Source: an uncultured Oscillospiraceae bacterium (GTDB lineage Bacteria > Bacillota > Clostridia > Oscillospirales > Oscillospiraceae). From it: a stretch of DNA of 60,602 nucleotides. The notes below the pieces were generated by a model. The model was not told where the DNA came from. It worked only from the letters and a program-made list of their open reading frames with translations, and searched no databases. Numbering within the stretch: the first letter of the stretch is position 1; every line of letters begins with the position of its first letter. Position numbers and translations under genes: made by a program. Location: NCBI GenBank assembly GCA_947629755.1, contig CANREY010000001.1:1-60602 (forward strand). Reading direction: 5' to 3'. Below are positions 1 through 45,670 of the stretch, piece after piece.

Positions 1-7
1 GATACCC

Positions 8-2263
8 ATGCCTAAGAAAAAACCTGACGAGAACGTTAAAAAAGTAAATAACCCCAACGTGATGGGGCTCCGCGCGCAGGTGCTGGACCAGGAGATAACG
101 GACACCCTTGAGGTAAACTACATGCCCTACGCCATGTCCGTCATCGTCTCCCGCGCCATACCGGAGATAGACGGCTTCAAGCCCGCCCACAGAAAGCTCC
201 TCTACACCATGTACAAGATGGGCCTTCTCACCGGCGGGAGGACGAAGTCCGCCAACATCGTTGGCCAGACCATGCGGTTAAACCCCCACGGCGACGCGGC
301 CATATATGAGACCATGGTCCGCCTTTCCCGCGGCTATCAGGCCCTTTTGACGCCCTTCGTGGACTCAAAGGGCAACTTCGGCAAGGTATATTCGCGAGAT
401 ATGTCCTACGCCGCCTCCCGGTACACCGAGGCCAAGCTTGCCCCCATATGCGCCGAGCTTTTCCGGGACATCGACTCCGACACCGTGGACTTTGTGGACA
501 ACTACGACGCCACCATGAAGGAGCCCACCCTGCTCCCCACCACCTTCCCCAACGTGCTGGTCTCCGCCAACACGGGCATAGCCGTGGGCATGGCCTCGAA
601 TATCTGCTCCTTCAACTTGGAGGAGGTCTGCCGTACCGAGATAGAGTTCCTGTCGGACCCGGACTGCGACCTTCTCTCCACCCTCCGGGCGCCGGACTTT
701 CCCACCGGGGGAGAGGTCATATACGAGCCTGAGGCCCTCCGGGAGGTCTACGAGACGGGAAGGGGCAGCGTAAAGCTCCGCGCCAGATGGCGGTACGACA
801 AAAAGGAAAACCTCATCGAGATATATGAGATACCCTACACCACCACCGCCGAGGCCATAATGGACAAGGTGGCGGAGCTTGTGAAGACCGGAAAGCTCCG
901 GGAGATCTCCGACATGCGCGACGAGACGGACCTCACGGGCCTTAAGCTCACGGTGGATCTAAAGCGCGGCGTGGACCCGGAGAAGCTGATGGCGAAGCTC
1001 ATGAAGCTGACGCCCCTGCAGGACGCCTTCGCCTGCAACTTCAATATCCTCATCGCCGGCACCCCAAGGGTCATGGGAATACGTGAGATACTCACCGAGT
1101 GGACCGCGTGGAGGGAGGAATCCGTCCGCAGGCGTGTGTTCGCGGACCTTACTAAGAAAAAGGACAGGCTCCACCTTTTGCGGGGCCTTGGGAAGATACT
1201 TCTGGACATCGACAAGGCCATCGCCATAATCCGCGGCACCGAGGAGGAGCGGGAGGTGGTGCCGAACCTGATGATCGGCTTCGGCATCGACGAGATACAG
1301 GCGGAGTTCGTGGCGGAGATAAAGCTTCGCAACATAAATAAGGAGTACATCTTAAAGCGCCTTGAGGACATAGAGAAGCTGGAGGCGGAGATCGCGGACC
1401 TTGAGGACGTGCTCCGCAACCGCCGCCGCGTCAGGACCATCATCAAAAAAGAGCTTGAGAACGTCATAAAAAAGTACGCCGAGCCCCGAAAGACCGGCAT
1501 AGTCTACGCCCACGAGCTCCCGGAGCCTGAGGACGAAGCGCCTGAGGACGACTATCAGGTGACCGTATTCTTCTCCCGCGGCGGGTACCTCAAGAAGATA
1601 ACGCCCCAGTCGCTGCGCATGAGCGGCGAGCAGAAGTATAAGGAGGGCGACGGGCTTCTCACGAGCTTTGAGGCCAAAAACTCCTCGGAGCTTCTCGTTT
1701 TCACCGACAAATACCAGTGCTACAAGACCCGCCTCTCCGACTTCCCCGACGGGAAGGCCTCAAATCTCGGCACCTACGTGCCCACACAGCTCAACATGGA
1801 GGAGGGGGAGAACGCCCTCTACATCTGCGACCCCATGGATTACCGGGGGAGCCTCCTTCTCATGTTTGAAAACGGCAAGGCCGCGAAGATACAGCTTTCT
1901 GGCTTTGAGACAAAGACCAACAGGCGAAAGCTCACCGGCGCTTACTCCGACAAGAGCCCTCTCGTCGGCTTTTTGCCTGTCTACGAGGACTTCGAGGCGG
2001 CGGCCTACACCTCCGACGGCCGGTGCGTGGTGTTCTCCACGGCCCTTATGACGCCCAAGCCCACGAAGAACACCCAGGGCGTGGCGGTGGTCACGTTAAA
2101 GCGCCAGCGGACGGTTACTGAGCTTCACCGGGTGGAGGACACAAGCCTCAAAAACGTCGCCCGCTACCGTGTCCGCTCGATCCCCGCCGCCGGGGCCATA
2201 CTCCGGGACGAGGACCGGGAGGAACAGCAGTTGAGCTTACTGGGCGGTGACGGCGATGAGTAA
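8..2263 (+). CDS. Type IIA DNA topoisomerase subunit A (GyrA/ParC family)
   Basis: 751-aa ORF. YMPYAMSVIVSRAIPEIDGFKPAHRKLLY near the N-terminus and the catalytic-tyrosine segment YAASRYTEAKL are hallmarks of type IIA topoisomerase A subunits. I see no GyrA-box (QRRGGKG-like) in the C-terminal domain, so ParC-like is at least as likely as GyrA. The B subunit would lie upstream, outside the window. Confidence 0.9.
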   Translation: MPKKKPDENVKKVNNPNVMGLRAQVLDQEITDTLEVNYMPYAMSVIVSRAIPEIDGFKPAHRKLLYTMYKMGLLTGGRTKSANIVGQTMRLNPHGDAAIYETMVRLSRGYQALLTPFVDSKGNFGKVYSRDMSYAASRYTEAKLAPICAELFRDIDSDTVDFVDNYDATMKEPTLLPTTFPNVLVSANTGIAVGMASNICSFNLEEVCRTEIEFLSDPDCDLLSTLRAPDFPTGGEVIYEPEALREVYETGRGSVKLRARWRYDKKENLIEIYEIPYTTTAEAIMDKVAELVKTGKLREISDMRDETDLTGLKLTVDLKRGVDPEKLMAKLMKLTPLQDAFACNFNILIAGTPRVMGIREILTEWTAWREESVRRRVFADLTKKKDRLHLLRGLGKILLDIDKAIAIIRGTEEEREVVPNLMIGFGIDEIQAEFVAEIKLRNINKEYILKRLEDIEKLEAEIADLEDVLRNRRRVRTIIKKELENVIKKYAEPRKTGIVYAHELPEPEDEAPEDDYQVTVFFSRGGYLKKITPQSLRMSGEQKYKEGDGLLTSFEAKNSSELLVFTDKYQCYKTRLSDFPDGKASNLGTYVPTQLNMEEGENALYICDPMDYRGSLLLMFENGKAAKIQLSGFETKTNRRKLTGAYSDKSPLVGFLPVYEDFEAAAYTSDGRCVVFSTALMTPKPTKNTQGVAVVTLKRQRTVTELHRVEDTSLKNVARYRVRSIPAAGAILRDEDREEQQLSLLGGDGDE

Positions 2264-3446
2264 GATAAAAAGCCTCGTCGCCGCCGCGGTCCTGATAACT
2301 TTCGCCATCTCCGGCTGCTCAAACTCCTTCGACCGTGAGTGGTCAAGCTCCTCAAAGCACCAGGGCGTGTCCTCCCAAGACCCGGCTGACGCGGAGCTTA
2401 CGCTGGAGGCGGAGGACTACGCCAGCCTCTATGACGATCTCTACACCTTCATCTCAAAGGGCGTGGAGCACGGGGTCGTGCGCATCGCCGGCTACGCCGG
2501 GGACATCGACGCGGACATGGCTCAGGCCGTCCTCACCGTGTCCAACGAGACACCGGAGGGGGCCTACTGCGTCTACTACATGAACTACAACATAACAAGG
2601 CTCGTCTCCGTCCTTGAGGTCAGCGTCTCGGTGATCTACCGCCACTCACGGGCAGAGCTGGACGCCATAGACAGCTGCGCCGGCGGGACAGACATGGAAA
2701 AGCTAATGCTGGACACCCTGAAGGGCCGCCTTGACTTCGTCACCGTCCGCGTCACCGACGAAAACATAAACGAGACGTCCATCAGCGCCGCTATCGAGAA
2801 GGCGTACTACGAAAACCCGGAGGATATTCTGTATATCCCCACCTACACAGTAAATTCCTACCCGGAGGAGGGGAGCGAGAGGATACTTGAGATCTCCTTA
2901 AGCTACCCCTACGCCACCTCCACCGTGGCCACCCGCCACGCCGCCCTTGAGCGCAAGGCCGAGGAGATCGTCGCTATTACCGGCGAGGGCACGGTGAACG
3001 ACAGACTTTTGAGACTGGGCGAGTACATGGACGCCAACGTGACATACGATAACAGCGTTGACGCCTCCGACATCGACGCCCGCCGGTACAGCGCAATGAC
3101 CGCCTACGGGGCGCTGGTGCAGGGGAGTGCCGCAGGGGAGGGCTACGCCATGGCCGTGAAGGTCCTCTGCGACCGTATGGGCGTTGAATGCTATGTGGTC
3201 CGGGGACGGTACAACAACATGGACTACGCGTGGAATACGGTCAGAATGGATAACGGCCAGCTTTACCACCTTGACTTCTCCGTCTTCGACCCCGCCGGGG
3301 CCGTCTTCAAGACCGACGCACAACAGCTTGCCGCAAACTACTGGTGGGACAAGGCCGAGTACCAGCCCTGCCCCGGCCCCTCCCTCTACGGCCCTGAGTT
3401 CGACCCGCCGGTCATCGTGGACCCCTACCCGCCCGTGGGCCCCTGA
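2247..3446 (+). CDS. Lipoprotein with C-terminal transglutaminase-like domain (catalytic Cys and His apparently substituted)
   Basis: 399-aa ORF overlapping the topoisomerase gene end by 17 nt. Signal peptide with lipobox AISG|C. The segment GEGYAMAVKVLCDRMGVECYVVRGRYNNMDYAWNTVRMDNGQLYHLDFS aligns by eye with the transglutaminase-like core (GxCxGYA ... HAWN ... D), but has G for the Cys and Y for the His. Confidence 0.6.
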   Translation: MTAMSKIKSLVAAAVLITFAISGCSNSFDREWSSSSKHQGVSSQDPADAELTLEAEDYASLYDDLYTFISKGVEHGVVRIAGYAGDIDADMAQAVLTVSNETPEGAYCVYYMNYNITRLVSVLEVSVSVIYRHSRAELDAIDSCAGGTDMEKLMLDTLKGRLDFVTVRVTDENINETSISAAIEKAYYENPEDILYIPTYTVNSYPEEGSERILEISLSYPYATSTVATRHAALERKAEEIVAITGEGTVNDRLLRLGEYMDANVTYDNSVDASDIDARRYSAMTAYGALVQGSAAGEGYAMAVKVLCDRMGVECYVVRGRYNNMDYAWNTVRMDNGQLYHLDFSVFDPAGAVFKTDAQQLAANYWWDKAEYQPCPGPSLYGPEFDPPVIVDPYPPVGP

Positions 3447-3522
3447 GCACATTCGGAGAAAAATTCAAATTTTTGCTTGACAAAGCCGGAATGAGCGTTT
3501 ATAATAGGTCACGCTTTCAAGC

Positions 3523-3598
3523 GCGGCCTTAGCTCATCTGGTAGAGCGCCACCTTGCCAAGGTGGAGGTAGCGAGTTCGAGCCTCGTAGGCCGCTCCA
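3523..3598 (+). tRNA. tRNA-Gly (anticodon GCC)
   Basis: 76 nt. Acceptor stem GCGGCCT/AGGCCGC, D arm AGCTCATCTGGTAGAGC, anticodon stem-loop CCACC-TTGCCAA-GGTGG, T arm GCGAG-TTCGAGC-CTCGT, discriminator T and encoded CCA. Confidence 0.88.
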
Positions 3599-3600
3599 GC

Positions 3601-3637
3601 ACAAAAAATCCCGTCCGTCAGGACGGGATTTTTTTGT
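3601..3637 (+). terminator. Intrinsic terminator after tRNA-Gly(GCC)
   Basis: AAAAAATCCCGTCC-GTCA-GGACGGGATTTTTTT: a perfect GC-rich stem with an A-run before and a T-run after (bidirectional shape). Confidence 0.75.
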
Positions 3638-3640
3638 GCT

Positions 3641-3958
3641 GGAGCGTACGGCCTTTGCCGGAGGCAAAGGCCGCCCCGCCGCAAACGCGGCGGGGTTTTA
3701 TTTTGACGTGAAGGAAACCCCTGATGGGTTTCCTCCACAGCTCTTTCCTTTCCGATTATTTCGGCAAACCCCTTGATCCAATCAATTTTCGCGGCGACAT
3801 GCGCGTCGCGAAAATTACCTCTTGTTTTGCGGAGTGTACGGCCCTTCGGGCCGTGCGCGTAGCAAAACGGCAGGAATAAATTTTTTGAATTTCGCAAAAT
3901 TCAAAAAATTTATTCCTCTCGCCCCCATTGCATCAAAAGGCTTCGCCTTTTGATGCAA
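3641..3958 (-). repeat. Multi-hairpin intergenic element, copy A (reverse orientation)
   Basis: Core H4 (3784-3816, AATTTTCGCGGCGACATGCGCGTCGCGAAAATT) and H3 (3824-3868, GTTTTGCGGAGTGTACGGCCCTTCGGGCCGTGCGCGTAGCAAAAC) are near-identical to copies at 38356-38440 and 34788-34878, and to the reverse complement of 5529-5613. The H2 and H1 positions (3875-3914, 3928-3958) hold different perfect hairpins. Confidence 0.8.
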
Positions 3959-3987
3959 AAAAATTGCGGCCCGCGGGCCGCAATTTT
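3957..3987 (-). terminator. Intrinsic terminator after tRNA-Gly(CCC)
   Basis: AAAAATTGCGGCCCGCGGGCCGCAATTTTT palindrome immediately downstream (minus strand) of the tRNA 3' end. Confidence 0.7.
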
Positions 3988-4061
3988 TGGAGCAGATAAT
4001 GGGAATCGAACCCACCTCTACGGCTTGGGAAGCCGTCGTTCTACCGATGAACTATATCTGC
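3988..4061 (-). tRNA. tRNA-Gly (anticodon CCC)
   Basis: Reverse complement reads GCAGATATAGTTCATCGGTAGAACGACGGCTTCCCAAGCCGTAGAGGTGGGTTCGATTCCCATTATCTGCTCCA (74 nt). Acceptor GCAGATA/TATCTGC, anticodon loop TTCCCAA, T loop TTCGATT, encoded CCA. Confidence 0.85.
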
Positions 4062-5370: not shown

Positions 5371-5409
5371 CCCACCAAAAGGGTCGCGCCCTCGGCGCCA
5401 ACCAAAAAA

Positions 5410-5678
5410 GCGGACGCCCTCGCGTCCGCTTGCCTGTCGGAAAAGGCCTGCGGCCTTTTCCGACAACGGGGAACGTGCGGAAAAATTTGCGAAAAGGTCT
5501 GCGGACCTATTCGCAAATTTTTCCTGCCGTTTTGCTCCGCGCACGGCCCGTAGGGCCGTACACTCCGCAAAACAAAAGGTATTTTTCGCAAGGCGCATGT
5601 CCTTGCGAAAAAAATTTGATTTGGGGTACGTTTAACAGGGGCTTGTCAACAGTCTGAAGCGGACGCCCTCGCGTCCGC
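5410..5678 (+). repeat. Multi-hairpin intergenic element, copy B, with flanking duplicated terminator hairpin
   Basis: GCGGACGCCCTCGCGTCCGC occurs at 5410-5429 and again at 5659-5678. The 229 bp between them comprises H1 5436-5464, H2 5483-5520, H3 5529-5573, H4 5582-5613 and the terminal CTTGTCAACAGTC at 5642-5654. Confidence 0.85.
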
Positions 5679-5700
5679 TTTACTATTCTTATATAACACC

Positions 5701-17104: not shown

Positions 17105-18298
17105 ATGATTTCGGAAAAAATGATAAAGATGACCGAGGGCGGGAGCGCCATTCGGGCTATGTTCGAGGAAGGGGCCAGAATGGCCGAGAAGTACGGCCGC
17201 GAGAACGTCTACGACTTCTCCCTTGGCAACCCCAACATTCCCGCGCCGGAGAAGGTGAGGGAGGAGATAGTGCGTATCGCCGCGGAGACCGACCCCATGG
17301 AGCTTCACGGCTACATGTCAAATTCCGGCTACCCGGAGGTGAGGGCCAAGGTGGCCGCGTCCCTCAATAAGCGCTTCGGCACCGCTTTTTCCGAGAACAA
17401 TATAATCATGACCGTGGGGGCCGCCGGCGGGCTCAACGTGCTTTTAAAGACCCTCTTGAACCCCGGCGACGAGGTCCTTGTCTTCGCCCCCTATTTCCTT
17501 GAGTACGGCAACTACGTCTCCAACTTTGACGGCGTCCTGAAAGCCATAAAGGCCAACATCGCCGGCAGCTTCCAGCCCGACGCCAACGCCTTGAGGGAGG
17601 CCATAACAAAAAAGACAAAGGCCCTCATTCTGAATAACCCCAACAACCCAACCGGCGTTATATACACCGAGGAGACAATAAAGGCCATCGCGGCGGTGCT
17701 GGAGGAGAAGCAAAAGGAGCTCGGCACGAGCATCTACCTTATCTCCGACGAGCCCTACCGGGAGCTTGCCTACGACGGGAGGGAGGTGCCCTGGCTCACG
17801 AAATATTACCGCAACACTCTCGTGGGCTACTCCTGGTCCAAGTCCCTGTCCCTCCCCGGCGAGCGCATCGGGTATGTGGTCATACCCTCCGAGTGCGACG
17901 ACGCCCAGCTCATATTCGACGCCGCTGTCATCGCCAACCGTATTCTGGGCTTTGTCAACGCCCCCAGCTTACAGCAGAGAGTGGTGGCCGAGTGCCTTGA
18001 GGAGAGCACGGACGTGGCGGCCTACGACAAAAACCGCAGGGCCCTCTATAAGGGCCTCACGGAGGCCGGCTTTGAGTGCGTCTACCCGGACGGGGCGTTT
18101 TACATGTGGGTGAAAACTCCCGGCGACGACAAGGAGTTTTCAGATAACGCCAAGAAGTACAACATTCTTGTCGTCCCCGGCGCGTCCTTCGCCTGTCCGG
18201 GCTATGTGCGCGTGGCCTACTGCGTAAGCTACGATATGATAATAAGGTCCCTTCCCGCCTTTAAGAAATTAGCGGCGGATTATGGGCTCTCAAAATAG
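17105..18298 (+). CDS. Pyridoxal-phosphate-dependent aminotransferase (class I, aspartate aminotransferase-like)
   Basis: 397 aa. PLP-lysine motif YSWSKSLSLPGERIGY. NNPNNPTG motif. Confidence 0.85.
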   Translation: MISEKMIKMTEGGSAIRAMFEEGARMAEKYGRENVYDFSLGNPNIPAPEKVREEIVRIAAETDPMELHGYMSNSGYPEVRAKVAASLNKRFGTAFSENNIIMTVGAAGGLNVLLKTLLNPGDEVLVFAPYFLEYGNYVSNFDGVLKAIKANIAGSFQPDANALREAITKKTKALILNNPNNPTGVIYTEETIKAIAAVLEEKQKELGTSIYLISDEPYRELAYDGREVPWLTKYYRNTLVGYSWSKSLSLPGERIGYVVIPSECDDAQLIFDAAVIANRILGFVNAPSLQQRVVAECLEESTDVAAYDKNRRALYKGLTEAGFECVYPDGAFYMWVKTPGDDKEFSDNAKKYNILVVPGASFACPGYVRVAYCVSYDMIIRSLPAFKKLAADYGLSK

Positions 18299-25829: not shown

Positions 25830-26162
25830 GTGAACATACAGATATTCGGCAAGGCCAAGTGCTTTGACACGAAGAAGGCCGAGCGCTATTTCAAGGAGCG
25901 CCGGATAAAATTCCAGTCTGTGGACATGGTCAAATACGGCATCAGCCCACGGGAGTTCGACTCCGTAAGGCGCGCCGTGGGCCTTGAGAACCTCATCGAC
26001 GAAAAGGCTAAGGGCGCGGAGCTGCTTAAATATCTCGCCTACGACGAGGACAAGGTGGAAAAGCTTCTTGCCGACCAGTCCCTCATAAAAACCCCCATCG
26101 TCCGCAACGGCAAGCTCGCCACCGTCGGCTACTGCCCGGAGGTTTGGAAAACGTGGGAATAA
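25830..26162 (+). CDS. ArsC/Spx/MgsR-family protein (thioredoxin-fold, single N-terminal Cys)
   Basis: 110 aa. IQIFGKAKCFDTKKAERYFKERRIKF plus the C-terminal LIKTPIVRNG...VGY pattern of the ArsC/YffB family. Starts 4 nt after the rnj stop. Confidence 0.7.
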   Translation: MNIQIFGKAKCFDTKKAERYFKERRIKFQSVDMVKYGISPREFDSVRRAVGLENLIDEKAKGAELLKYLAYDEDKVEKLLADQSLIKTPIVRNGKLATVGYCPEVWKTWE

Positions 26163-26171
26163 ACCAAAAAA

Positions 26172-26440
26172 GCGCCCCGACCGGGGCGCTTTTTTGGTTG
26201 TCGACAAAGGCCCAAGGGCCTTTGTCGACAATGGAGAACGTGCGGAAAAATTCGCGAAAAGGTCTGCGGACCTATTCGCAAATTTTTCCTGCCGTCACGC
26301 CGCGCGCGCCGCAAGCGGCACACTTGCGTGACAAGAGGTAATTTTCGCGACGTACATGCCGCCGCGAAAATCATTTGAAATGGAGTTTTACGCTTATCTG
26401 TGGTTTGCCAACAGTCTAAAAAGTGCCCCACTGGGGGTGC
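26172..26440 (+). repeat. Multi-hairpin intergenic element, copy C, with flanking related terminator hairpins
   Basis: Element at 26198-26416 (H1 TTGTCGACAAAGGCCCAAGGGCCTTTGTCGACAA at 26198-26231, ending CCAACAGTC). Flanked by GCGCCCCGACCGGGGCGC (26172-26189) and GTGCCCCACTGGGGGTGC (26423-26440), each with an A-run and a TTTTTTGGT tail. Confidence 0.85.
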
Positions 26441-26493
26441 TTTTTTGGTGAGCGGAGAATTGCGGCCGGGGTGGGACAAATATTCTCTTTTAA

Positions 26494-26522
26494 TTGACAA
26501 TACCCCTACAATAAACTATAAT
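26494..26522 (+). promoter_or_regulatory. Consensus sigma-A promoter of the beta-CASP RNase gene
   Basis: TTGACA (26494-26499), 17-nt spacer, TATAAT (26517-26522). Confidence 0.6.
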
Positions 26523-34639: not shown

Positions 34640-34671
34640 CATATTAAAGGTTGCGCCTACGGCGCGAACCA

Positions 34672-34782
34672 AAAAGGGGAGGGTTTAGAACCCTCCCCTA
34701 CGGCGATTTTAGGAGATTTGCCCAAACAACCCGTAGGGGCGGGTTCCAAACCCGCCCACTCCTCGTCCCGCCCGCAGGCGAA
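34672..34782. repeat. G-rich hairpin repeat family 2, locus c
   Basis: GGGGAGGGTTTAGAACCCTCCCC hairpin, CCCAAACAACCC (compare GCCGAACAACCC at 21151-21162), GGCGGGTTCCAAACCCGCC hairpin, and the 21-mer CTCGTCCCGCCCGCAGGCGAA (34762-34782). Confidence 0.65.
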
Positions 34783-34787
34783 TTCAA

Positions 34788-34917
34788 TATTTTTCGCAAG
34801 GACATGTGCCTTGCGAAAAATCCCTCTTGTTTTGCGGAGTGTATGGCCCTTCGGGCCATGCGTGGAGCAAAACGGCAGAAAAAATTTCCGGAATTGGAAT
34901 TCCGGAAATTTTTTCGC
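34788..34917 (-). repeat. Multi-hairpin intergenic element, copy D (truncated: H4-H3-H2 only)
   Basis: H4 is ATTTTTCGCAAGGACATGTGCCTTGCGAAAAAT. H3 is GTTTTGCGGAGTGTATGGCCCTTCGGGCCATGCGTGGAGCAAAAC. The H2 position holds AAAAAATTTCCGGAATTGGAATTCCGGAAATTTTTT. The copy ends in TCGCACG (compare the conserved CCGCACGTTC linker). Confidence 0.8.
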
Positions 34918-34926
34918 ACGCATACC

Positions 34927-34957
34927 TGAAAAATAAAAAACCGCCTCAGCGGTTTTT
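34927..34957. terminator. Bidirectional terminator (ydcF-like + / carD-like -)
   Basis: AAAAATAAAAAACCGCCTCAGCGGTTTTTTATTTT. Confidence 0.7.
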
Positions 34958-38265: not shown

Positions 38266-38284
38266 GCCCACCGAAAAGCCAAAA

Positions 38285-38562
38285 GCCCGCTCAAACCTGA
38301 GCGGGCTTTAAACTGTTGACAAACCCCAGATAAGCGTAAAACCCCATTTCAAATAATTTTCGCGGCGACATGTGCGTCGCGAAAATTACCTTTTGTTTTG
38401 CGGAGTGTACGGCCCTTTGGGCCGTGCGCGGAGCAAAACGGCAGGAAAAAATCGCAAATAGGCCCGCAGGCCTTTTTGCGATTTTTTCCGCACGTTCCCC
38501 CTTGTCGACAAAGGCCAACGGACTTTGTCGACAATCTAAAGCCCGCTCACGTTTGAGCGGGC
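38285..38562 (-). repeat. Multi-hairpin intergenic element, copy E (reverse orientation), with flanking duplicated terminator hairpin
   Basis: Element at 38312-38535 (ACTGTTGACAAACCCC ... TTGTCGACAAAGGCCAACGGACTTTGTCGACAA). Flanked by GCCCGCTCAAACCTGAGCGGGC (38285-38306) and GCCCGCTCACGTTTGAGCGGGC (38541-38562). Confidence 0.85.
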
Positions 38563-38583
38563 TTTATCACTATACTATAAGCT

Positions 38584-38844
38584 TTAATATTGGTTTTCCG
38601 CTATAAGCTTTAATTTCTGCTCCCTCGTAAGTCCCTTTATCGCAAGCTCCCTTTTAAGGGCGGAGGACTTATCGAGTGCCGGCTCGGAGTACACAAGCTC
38701 CACGGGCTCATGGGAGCGGGTATACTTGGCTCCACGGCCTGAGCTGTGGGCCTTTAAACGGCGATCAAGGTCGTTCGTTATGCCGGTATAGAGGCTCCCG
38801 TCGCCGCACCGGAGGATATAGACGCGCCACTCTCTCAAGCTCAC
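38584..38844 (-). CDS. GIY-YIG nuclease family protein (small stand-alone URI domain)
   Basis: 86 aa. WRVYILRCGDGSLYTGITNDLDRRLKAHSSGRGAKYTR is the GIY-YIG core. Overlaps the upstream lipoprotein gene by 4 nt. Confidence 0.85.
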   Translation of the reverse strand: MSLREWRVYILRCGDGSLYTGITNDLDRRLKAHSSGRGAKYTRSHEPVELVYSEPALDKSSALKRELAIKGLTREQKLKLIAENQY

Positions 38845-44745: not shown

Positions 44746-45573
44746 TCAGCCTTTAAAAGCAGAGATAACATCATCGGCGTTCACGATCTCGGAGTTGGTC
44801 ATTATAAAGAGTATAAGACCGTCCTTGACCGCGTACTTTACAGTGTCGGCGGAGACGCATATCTGCCAGCGCGGGTTAGCGTTCCGCTCAAGCTCCTTTG
44901 CGTACTCCCCGGCGTCAACGCCCTCGGCGGGCTCAATGAGGAGTATGACATGGGCGATGGAGCCCATCATGGGGGCGTTCACCGCCACCTTCGTGCCCTC
45001 GGTATAGGCCATACCGCCAAACCAGTTGGAGAACATGCCGGAGCTGGAAAGGGAGTGGTTATCCACCATCATCTCGCCGGTCTTGCCCTCACAAATGGCG
45101 GCCAGCCTGTCGACCAGATCTCCCGCGTCAGTCACGGGCACGTCCTGCGTCTCTCCGCCGCCGTTACCGCCGGGGGTGATTATACCGCCCGGCCCAAGCT
45201 GGAACCCCGGCCCGATGGGCGGGTGGCTCTCACTCGGCTCAGTGGTGGGGGGCTCCGTGGCCGGAGGCTCGGTGGACTGAGGCTCAGTCTCCGGGGGCTG
45301 GGTGTCAGCGGGCTTCGTCTCAGGAGGCTCCGTCTCCGTGGGGTTAGTGCCTTCAGTCTCCGTAGGCTCCGTGGCTTCGGTCTCCGTAGGCTCCGTGGCT
45401 TCGGTCTCCGTAGGCTCCGTGTCCTCAGTCTCCGCAGGCTTCGTGCCCTCGGTATCATTGGGCCTCGTGTCCTCGGTTCCCGTGGGCTCCGTCACGCCCT
45501 GCGTCCTGCCGCCGCAGGCGGCCAGCGCCAAAACGAGCGTCAGGGCGAGTATTATCGCGACGATCTTTTTCAT
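44746..45573 (-). CDS. Lipoprotein with T/E/P-rich tandem-repeat linker and the same C-terminal domain as 44195..44713
   Basis: 275 aa from MKKIVAIILALTLVLALAA|C. The linker contains TEPTETEA repeats. Confidence 0.65.
   Translation of the reverse strand: MKKIVAIILALTLVLALAACGGRTQGVTEPTGTEDTRPNDTEGTKPAETEDTEPTETEATEPTETEATEPTETEGTNPTETEPPETKPADTQPPETEPQSTEPPATEPPTTEPSESHPPIGPGFQLGPGGIITPGGNGGGETQDVPVTDAGDLVDRLAAICEGKTGEMMVDNHSLSSSGMFSNWFGGMAYTEGTKVAVNAPMMGSIAHVILLIEPAEGVDAGEYAKELERNANPRWQICVSADTVKYAVKDGLILFIMTNSEIVNADDVISAFKG
45337..45480 (-). repeat. In-frame 24-nt tandem repeat (about 6 units, 2 perfect) encoding TEPTETEA
   Basis: Plus-strand units are CGTAGGCTCCGTGGCTTCGGTCTC x2 (identical), flanked by degenerate units (CGTAGGCTCCGTGTCCTCAGTCTC, CGCAGGCTTCGTGCCCTCGGTATC, ...). 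Confidence 0.8.
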
Positions 45574-45670
45574 ATCTATGTATTCCTTTCGGCTGATTTG
45601 CCCCACATATTGGGGTATCCGGCCTTAAGACTACATATAGATATGAAATGTTCCCGAAAAAGGAAAATTT

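Follow-up and report, generated by a model that had tools for sequence, protein, structure and literature searches.

How can a whole stem of a hairpin be exchanged for another sequence while its pairing, and the architecture around it, are preserved? This question is raised by a non-coding element of several hairpins in a 60,602-nt contig (CANREY010000001.1) from an uncultured Oscillospiraceae bacterium, the whole of which is referred to below as the window. The window holds five copies of the element (copies A to E), and the original prediction, made from the letters alone, singled out copy C as a case of compensatory stem replacement, which was taken to argue for selection on the hairpins, or for their templated generation, as a functional RNA or a structured DNA. 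The sequences and coordinates claimed for 26172-26440 were all found to be correct on direct reading. In our estimation, copy C is probably a single insertion of a mobile repeat that is small, does not code for protein and is not autonomous, and whose copies have come to populate the chromosomes of one clade of rabbit-gut Oscillospiraceae; the family as a whole is best read as a new one, made up of small palindromic mobile repeats comparable to REP, BOX and MITE sequences.

The family unit is non-coding, 205-227 nt long and composed of four hairpins (H1-H4) that are joined by conserved linkers in a fixed order. Copy C (26199-26417, + strand, 219 nt) consists of H1, a linker, H2, H3, H4 and a tail, its bounds being given by the duplicated target hairpins on either side, and the family profile matches it at 26197-26416 (nhmmer, E-value 1e-61). 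H1 (GTCGACAAAGGCCC-AA-GGGCCTTTGTCGAC, 26200-26229) covaries between copies, as had been predicted: its outer 5-6 bp are hypervariable from copy to copy and complementarity is kept. It is followed at 26230-26243 by a conserved single-stranded linker (consensus GGGGAACGTGCG in alignment A3, described below) and at 26244-26289 by H2, a 21-bp hairpin of the B-type allele with one C:A mismatch and, in addition, the A:A mismatch common to B-type alleles; the near identity with H2 of copy B that had been reported is real, a single base being different. H3 (26294-26332) belongs to a variant subfamily. Both its outer stem, GTCACGC at 26294-26300 with GCGTGAC at 26326-26332, and its inner hairpin, GCCGC-AA-GCGGC at 26308-26319, are present as described, together with a conserved internal loop (CGCGCGC ... 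ACACTT). In H4 (TTTTCGCGACG-TACATGC-CGCCGCGAAAA, 26342-26370) the loop CRCATG is conserved and an A:C mismatch is common to the copies, while 7 of the 13 pairs are changed on both sides across the family. The tail (26371-26417) ends in GCCAACAGTCT, a right end that repeats the left one, TGTCGACAAAG, imperfectly and in inverted orientation.

Copy C lies behind an ArsC-family gene (stop at 26162). Between the two, at 26167-26198, there is a two-way terminator-like hairpin made up of an A-run, a 7-bp G+C stem and a T-run, and a direct repeat of it, identical at 26 of 32 positions, follows the tail at 26418-26449; this right hairpin has 91% identity to its counterpart at the orthologous locus of another species (L021). 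Since the copy is base-for-base identical in two independent ENA assemblies (L042, L043), it is not an assembly artefact. The fold of the region has a z-score of about -10 against shuffles on either strand. The two flanking hairpins were overlooked by a terminator scan, probably owing to pairing between A-run and T-run. In the minimum-free-energy RNA fold of 26164-26450 (+) the flanking hairpins pair with each other and form a long-range stem around the whole element, which is a trivial consequence of the duplication of a palindrome; this predicted stem could matter if the region is transcribed.

The replaced stem is not special to copy C, contrary to what had been supposed. In sequencing run X1 an exact 43-nt contig over 26289-26331 has a depth of 110, as against about 5 in unique flanks. 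Contigs from four runs (X1, X4, X9 and the RNA run X19) were aligned on 26284-26343, and the copy-C-type H3 attained total depths of 325-500, 2500-3670, 1270-2690 and 200-245, respectively, compared to 800, 4500, 2700 and 110 for the canonical H3. At the CAC/GTG positions of the copy-C-type H3 these contigs contain no alternative letters, and their loose ends show this H3 attached to a wide range of H2 and H4 types. Its depth in rabbit-gut metagenomes is about half that of the canonical form or more, and what copy C carries is the standard H3 of a large subfamily. The variant inner hairpin is also found together with the canonical outer stem (L010:3798-3997), and other loci possess further complementary outer stems, namely GTCGCCC/GGGCGAC (L006), GGAATAC/GTATTCC (L052) and GTTGCCC/GGGCAAC (L057), or one with a single mismatch, GTCGCCC/GTGCGAC (L056). 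The 7-bp outer helix of H3 is fixed in length and free in sequence, while the adjoining internal loops (TCCGCGC or CGCGCGC, and ACACTCC or ACACTT) are conserved.

Covariation of this kind extends over the whole element. For a multi-copy alignment of 28 copies (A3), RNAalifold predicted a structure of four hairpins with 53 pairs, of which 36 are changed on both sides in at least one sequence. Paired cells amount to 97.4%, compared to 80.0 +/- 0.7% in shuffles (none of 500 as high) and 41-56% in slid controls; cells changed on both sides number 235, a value beyond all 500 shuffles (66.8) and all slid controls (15-61). H2 alone displays 21 different 5'-arm haplotypes among the 28 copies, each with a matching 3' arm. 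The covariation in A3 favours the view that structure is kept while sequence is swapped: stem differences are overwhelmingly compensatory, so that simple repeat decay does not explain the family, and either selection or a templated process keeps the hairpins intact. The pairs themselves are almost exclusively of one type, with 1420 Watson-Crick, 18 G:T and 9 A:C among 1477 cells, and the sole widely shared mismatch, located in H4, is A:C on the sense strand. The signature of a strand-specific RNA, i.e. tolerance of G:U on one strand only, was not found in A3, G:T and A:C being about equally rare. Structure is clearly maintained and nothing marks one strand as RNA; of the original prediction, the maintenance of the hairpins holds, but a functional RNA is unproven.

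With a profile derived from the window copies, five copies and no more are recovered in the 60.6 kb, including the four others that had been named. Copy A (~3739-3960, -) is situated behind tRNA-Gly(ccc) and its terminator. Copy B (5432-5656, +), with canonical H3, lies between two identical 24-nt copies of its target, at 5408-5431 and 5657-5680. Copy D (~34753-34945, -) is devoid of H1 and begins right after the terminator of a CarD-like gene, and copy E (38311-38537, -) is flanked by duplicated hairpins at 38282-38310 and 38538-38566 (25 of 29 identical). Outside the window, a scan of a genome collection, with a pattern that included the 3' half of the canonical H3, and the profile yielded 23 full copies in 21 loci (L001-L021) of six rabbit-gut Oscillospiraceae assemblies, all of them uncultured metagenome-assembled genomes. 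More copies were encountered in loci fetched for other purposes (second copies in L006 and L016, and copies in L018, L052, L056 and L057), which brings the number outside the window to about 30 in roughly ten related rabbit-gut assemblies. Rabbit-gut metagenome runs cover the element about 100-700 times as deeply as unique flanks. The genes that flank the copies are ordinary housekeeping genes. Truncated and internally deleted copies exist, among them copies without H1, H2 or H2 plus H3.

No conserved open reading frame (ORF) is present in the element, and the ATG of the H4 loop precedes covarying codons. A small peptide starting at this ATG was rejected as an identity for the element, since the downstream codons covary with the other arm and the AAAGG resembling a ribosome-binding site is 17 nt away. 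Likewise rejected were H1 as the host gene's own terminator or as a separate repeat (the same H1 subtypes occur at unrelated loci, and no lone H1-like hairpin is present in the window) and an integron attC site, group II intron, retron or CRISPR, for which no supporting feature was seen. No Rfam family was matched: the window gave only two tRNAs at gathering score, and copies C and B gave nothing meaningful at E-values up to 10. A scan of JGI metagenomes with a degenerate H3-H4 pattern returned 20 loci, all chance matches, and a scan of the IMG/VR viral collection returned none.

The manner in which the copies are set into their surroundings indicates how they arrived there. Duplicated hairpins flank copies at five independent loci, with identities of 32/32 nt (L056), 24/24 (copy B), 26/32 (copy C) and 25/29 (copy E) and a length of ~25 nt at L001; each duplication is 24-32 nt long and comprises a whole locus-specific hairpin, and a sixth copy with this feature, L021, is the orthologue of C. 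The start-to-start spacing of the duplicates is 237-256 nt at four of these loci (L056, B, C and E), which corresponds to an inserted unit of 205-227 nt. At copy B the left duplicate kept the A-run and the right one the T-run of one former two-way terminator. The hairpins that bracket copy C, correctly described as direct repeats of each other, are target-site duplications produced by insertion and not parts of the element.

The copies also have a polarity. For 25 of 32 copies an ORF on the same strand ends no more than 100 nt upstream, the gap being 8 nt or less in 16 of these; two more copies follow the 3' end of a tRNA or a tRNA-like sequence; and in convergent intergenic regions the left end is nearer to a stop codon in all nine clear cases. 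A strong hairpin with a T-run follows many copies. Two copies at different loci of one genome (L001 and L009) agree at 201 of 205 bases, and relatives with 86-89% identity in the ArsC protein contain one partial copy or none in 20 kb; in L052 and L054, relatives in which the synteny is different, the ArsC-family gene is followed by a single terminator and no element. The element has spread by insertion at terminators, with a fixed polarity and in the orientation of the gene. Two observations concern loops. Those of the hairpins that flank copy E are nearer to an inverted than to a direct match (AACC-type vs inverse), and the loop of H2 is flipped (CC vs GG) between otherwise identical hairpins in copy D (~34865) and L003. 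Such flips are of the kind expected from palindrome-mediated events.

A comparison with L021, where the same ArsC-family and beta-CASP genes are found in another species, bears on how copy C obtained its present stems. Identity between the two loci is 92% in the upstream gene, 75% in the left hairpin, 79% in H1, 84% in H2 and 61.5% in H3, and amounts to 97.5% in H4 plus tail and 98.8% downstream, against a coding background of 87-97%. Copy C shares its H2, but for the one base, with copy B of the same genome, and its H1 resembles that of copy E; L021 possesses the H2 of copy E and the H1 of L010, mismatch included. A second orthologous pair, L020/L010, likewise differs, with canonical versus variant inner H3. 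Alleles that are common to unrelated loci and swapped at orthologous ones point to exchange between copies rather than to point-by-point change in place. Judged from these alleles, copy C is probably a mosaic, the left part of which was probably acquired by exchange with other copies of the same genome. The raised divergence of the locus-specific left hairpin between C and L021 is not explained by such exchange. In a third species (L050), all that is left at this locus is the 3' half of the H4 stem with the tail and the terminator.

In the mechanism that we envisage, the mobile unit would consist of the four hairpins, the conserved linkers and imperfect terminal inverted repeats of ~11 nt, and the copying machinery would read the hairpins as folded single-stranded nucleic acid, only those variants whose arms still pair having founded new copies. 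Multi-base compensatory changes would originate at the DNA level, through template switching within a palindrome or module exchange between copies, and compensated variants would afterwards be carried along by the expansion of a successful subfamily. REPIN hairpins commonly show compensatory changes (PMC3116915), and multi-base compensatory mutations that result from template switching have been described (PMC8794818). Two candidates for the enzyme may be considered: an HUH tyrosine transposase of RAYT-like type, the gene for which adjoins the window, and a transposase that acts in trans and cuts at widely staggered positions around hairpins, like that of IS1630, whose target duplications vary between 19 and 26 bp (PMC2853133).

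The first of these candidates was found in two related species (L058:1317-1919 and L059:281-856), where a gene for a RAYT-like protein of 191-200 aa lies directly upstream of, and overlaps, the orthologue of the window's first gene. The latter encodes a 751-aa protein of topoisomerase type, and its start is the part that is overlapped. Window positions 1-15 (+) are identical to the end of the RAYT-like gene (DTHA-stop) at L058:1905-1919 and L059:842-856, and the homologues P0242-P0244 all end in DTHA. The window contig thus very probably starts at the end of a RAYT-like gene, and seems to break at or in it. The L058 protein matches Pfam Y1_Tnp with an E-value of 3e-6 and the NCBIfam model REP_Tyr_transpos (REP-associated tyrosine transposase) with 8e-18, although its 64.7 bits fall short of the cutoff (80). 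A further match, with an E-value of 2e-4, is to the structure of E. coli TnpA-REP (PDB 4ER8); an HVH triplet (His-x-His) as in the HUH motif is present, and a C-terminal segment that contains a Tyr aligns with the 4ER8 protein. In both L058 and L059 the gene sits between two housekeeping genes, with a gap of 36 nt upstream and an overlap downstream. As the mobiliser of the repeat it is a candidate and for the moment a lead only. No gene for an IS30-family DDE transposase was seen among the window ORFs scanned. An 86-aa stand-alone GIY-YIG nuclease domain is encoded directly upstream of copy E (38584-38844, -), and no other copy has such a neighbour. This gene was rejected as a mobiliser, being the sole one of its kind in all loci.

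A number of points weigh against a mobile repeat and have to be set beside the evidence for it. No pair of empty and filled sites was obtained for one and the same locus; an empty site for copy B was sought by means of PBP5 orthologues, but the species found differ in synteny and gave instead L056, an independent fresh insertion, and L057. A duplicated hairpin is seen at five independent loci only, i.e. in six of roughly 35 copies, and the 16 copies that abut a stop codon leave no space for a left duplicate. The terminal inverted repeats are weak, the left TGTCGAAAAAG agreeing with the reverse complement of the right TGTCAAAAAAA or TGTTGGCAAAC at 8-9 of 11 positions by eye. The conservation of H3 in A3 is inflated, as the pattern with which copies were collected carried the canonical H3. 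The ~300 kb of loci contain neither an autonomous partner nor a transposase whose ends match. No copy of the element flanks the RAYT-like gene in L058 or L059, and nhmmer finds none in L058; enzymes of the IS200/IS605 type, moreover, are not known to make target duplications. Finally, conserved linkers and internal loops beside freely covarying helices, the strict sense orientation behind genes and a copy between grpE and dnaK are equally expected of a functional RNA.

It is this last point that gives rise to a different explanation, which we regard as unlikely but deserving of attention: the element might be a structured RNA module used by the host in 3' untranslated regions, co-transcribed with the upstream gene and with hairpins that persist through selection for RNA folding. 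Such a module could, for instance, block 3'-5' exonucleases, provide a site for processing or offer proteins a platform to bind, roles that are compatible with mobility. A strict sense orientation directly behind genes would follow naturally, and the copy inside the grpE-dnaK operon, by virtue of its position between the two genes, is necessarily co-transcribed with it. Further support comes from helices that are free in sequence and fixed in length among conserved linkers and a conserved internal loop (six or more versions of the 7-bp H3 outer stem), from an H3 apex that tolerates an insertion of variable length, from H4 plus tail being 97.5% identical between orthologues compared to 87-97% in neighbouring coding sequence, and from the occurrence of the element in contigs of RNA-seq runs, in one of which the C-type H3 is about twice as deep as the canonical one. 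These contigs, from runs X19 and X21, are unstranded, however, and at locus C the junctions of the element with the left hairpin and of the tail with the right hairpin have a depth of 0-0.8 in the RNA run; together with the grpE-dnaK copy they are not enough to call the family an RNA gene. An RNA that folds on one strand would also be unusual in having almost no G:U, which in A3 is no commoner than A:C (18 vs 9 of 1477 cells), and no Rfam match was obtained for the element even at permissive E-values. Near-identical copies at different loci, combined with target duplications, show spread by insertion, and close relatives (L052, L054) have few or no copies in 20 kb.

Perfect stems could in principle also be a by-product of mutation, if template switching or hairpin mismatch correction recopied the arms of any palindrome in the genome with no selection on the element. 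Such recopying is documented (PMC8794818) and would suit a pairing that is almost purely Watson-Crick, as well as blocks of several adjacent bases that change on both arms together, the loop flips in H2 of copy D and L003 and in the flanking hairpins of copy E, the combination in L019 of the 5' arm of one allele with the 3' arm of another, and the loss of one base pair, on both sides, from the locus-specific left terminator of copy C relative to L021. It leaves unexplained why linkers are conserved, helix lengths constant, the order of hairpins fixed and insertion polar, and why whole alleles are common to unrelated loci and species; as the cause of the perfect stems it seems to us quite improbable.

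We attach a similarly small probability to a more far-reaching version of mobility, in which an undescribed mobile structured element reads intrinsic terminators in their folded hairpin form, inserts new copies of itself behind genes with fixed polarity and duplicates the whole terminator, its own four-hairpin fold, in which the internal loop of H3 and the loop of H4 are conserved, being the active partner. That fold could be a substrate that programmes a domesticated RAYT-like enzyme, or an RNA that the host now uses to shape the 3' ends of many mRNAs. Least probable by far is a local compensatory replacement of H3 in copy C itself after insertion, for although L021 has the canonical H3 and copy C is alone within A3 in departing at three outer-stem pairs, A3 was collected by a pattern that required the canonical H3, the H3 with GTCACGC...GCGTGAC occurs at 20-100 times unique depth, in combination with numerous other H2 and H4 modules and in contigs with differing flanks that exclude an origin from one locus, and the L020/L010 pair shows allele swapping to be recurrent.

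Several further features adjoin the copies. Just past the right hairpin of copy C and before the beta-CASP gene there is a perfect sigma-70-type promoter (TTGACA, 17 nt, TATAAT; 12/12) at 26494-26522 (+), in a stretch with 98.8% identity to L021, above that of the surrounding coding sequence. A Logan contig (L044:2281-2383) encodes the identical 110-aa ArsC-family protein among other neighbours: the gene is preceded by one for an AAA-ATPase, and the element is missing behind it. The contig may be chimeric or stem from a rearranged strain. Copy A is bracketed by convergent tRNA-Gly genes (GCC at 3523-3598, +; CCC at 3988-4061, -), and since the L057 copy is also directly behind tRNA-Gly(CCC), the site was either occupied long ago or is used repeatedly. 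Next to copy D, at 34650-34770, there is a second hairpin repeat that is not related to the first (GGGNGGGTTNNNAACCCNCCC, flanked by CCTACGG-type sequence); its hairpins are at 34677-34697 and 34737-34757, and it stands again beside element copies of other species (L012, right flank; L050:8480-8560). A third repeat of ~110 nt is nested in the H3 apex of two copies in opposite orientations (L018:5301-5418 and L057:9568-9677; 92/118 matches as reverse complement) and also occurs alone, e.g. between dnaK and dnaJ (sites L052:17253-17354 and 17423-17497, L019:72-172 and L020:449-549). In these genomes the apices of hairpins seem to attract insertions. Apart from the copies, a 24-nt tandem repeat of ~7 units (76-87% matches) at 45290-45496, inside a 286-aa ORF (44746-45606, -) without Pfam match, probably encodes a repetitive, perhaps surface-exposed, protein segment.

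A mobile palindromic repeat of this kind has counterparts in several known systems. REP, BIME and REPIN-RAYT systems are likewise high-copy extragenic palindromes at gene 3' ends and inside operons, with lineage-specific expansion, and a single-copy RAYT-like gene in conserved synteny exists in the same clade here too; in REPINs the hairpin is kept by the frequent compensatory changes mentioned above (PMC3116915). By contrast, the present unit of 205-227 nt has four non-homologous hairpins, whereas a REP has 20-40 nt and a REPIN is an inverted REP doublet; its RAYT-like gene is without a flanking repeat, and insertion duplicates 24-32 nt of target. We know of no report of a target duplication of that length for REPINs. 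The pneumococcal BOX, RUP and SPRITE elements (PMC3049150) are also modular, tightly folded and non-coding, are enriched behind genes and between convergent genes, have modules that are present or absent and are co-transcribed with their neighbours; SPRITE resembles a terminator, as does H1. They show no sequence relationship to our family and belong to another branch of host phyla, and the whole-hairpin target duplications and the much stronger stem covariation between subfamilies set the element apart.

Bacterial MITEs (Correia, Nezha, MITEAba12) are likewise intergenic multi-copy sequences of small size and without coding capacity, in which target duplication goes together with strong secondary structure and with terminal inverted repeats, the last having a weak counterpart here. 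The family agrees with them in its small non-coding dispersed copies and in a target duplication, the latter being of atypical length and without a recognisable trace in most copies. Yet its terminal inverted repeats are short and imperfect (8-9/11), its duplications measure 24-32 nt rather than 2-10, and its conserved part is the internal architecture and not the termini. Group IIC introns insert behind terminator hairpins, and this sense-oriented insertion next to intrinsic terminators is shared by the element, which, however, has no intron domains (no Rfam match), is only ~220 nt long and generates a target duplication. The targets of IS1630 of Mycoplasma fermentans (IS30 family) are reportedly inverted repeats that resemble terminators, as Calcutt et al. 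are said to have found in 1999. Its long and variable target duplications (19-26 bp, PMC2853133) are comparable to the 24-32 nt hairpins duplicated here, but IS1630 is an autonomous insertion sequence with a DDE transposase and the element has no ORF.

These results add a well-defined and very abundant repeat family to uncultured gut bacteria in which none is annotated. Many of the matches in the genome collection are situated at contig ends, so that the repeat explains why these assemblies break. With at least six versions of a 7-bp helix, 21 of a 21-bp helix and almost no wobble intermediates, the family also constitutes an unusually clean natural data set on the evolution of hairpins, and its clear cases of an insertion that duplicates an entire terminator hairpin bear on how some transposition machineries read DNA structure. 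If the RAYT-like gene does mobilise the repeat, a testable REP-like system would be available in Firmicutes; and should the doubtful case of an element that actively recognises folded terminators prove true, the Clostridia would possess a REP-like system whose insertion chemistry is new.

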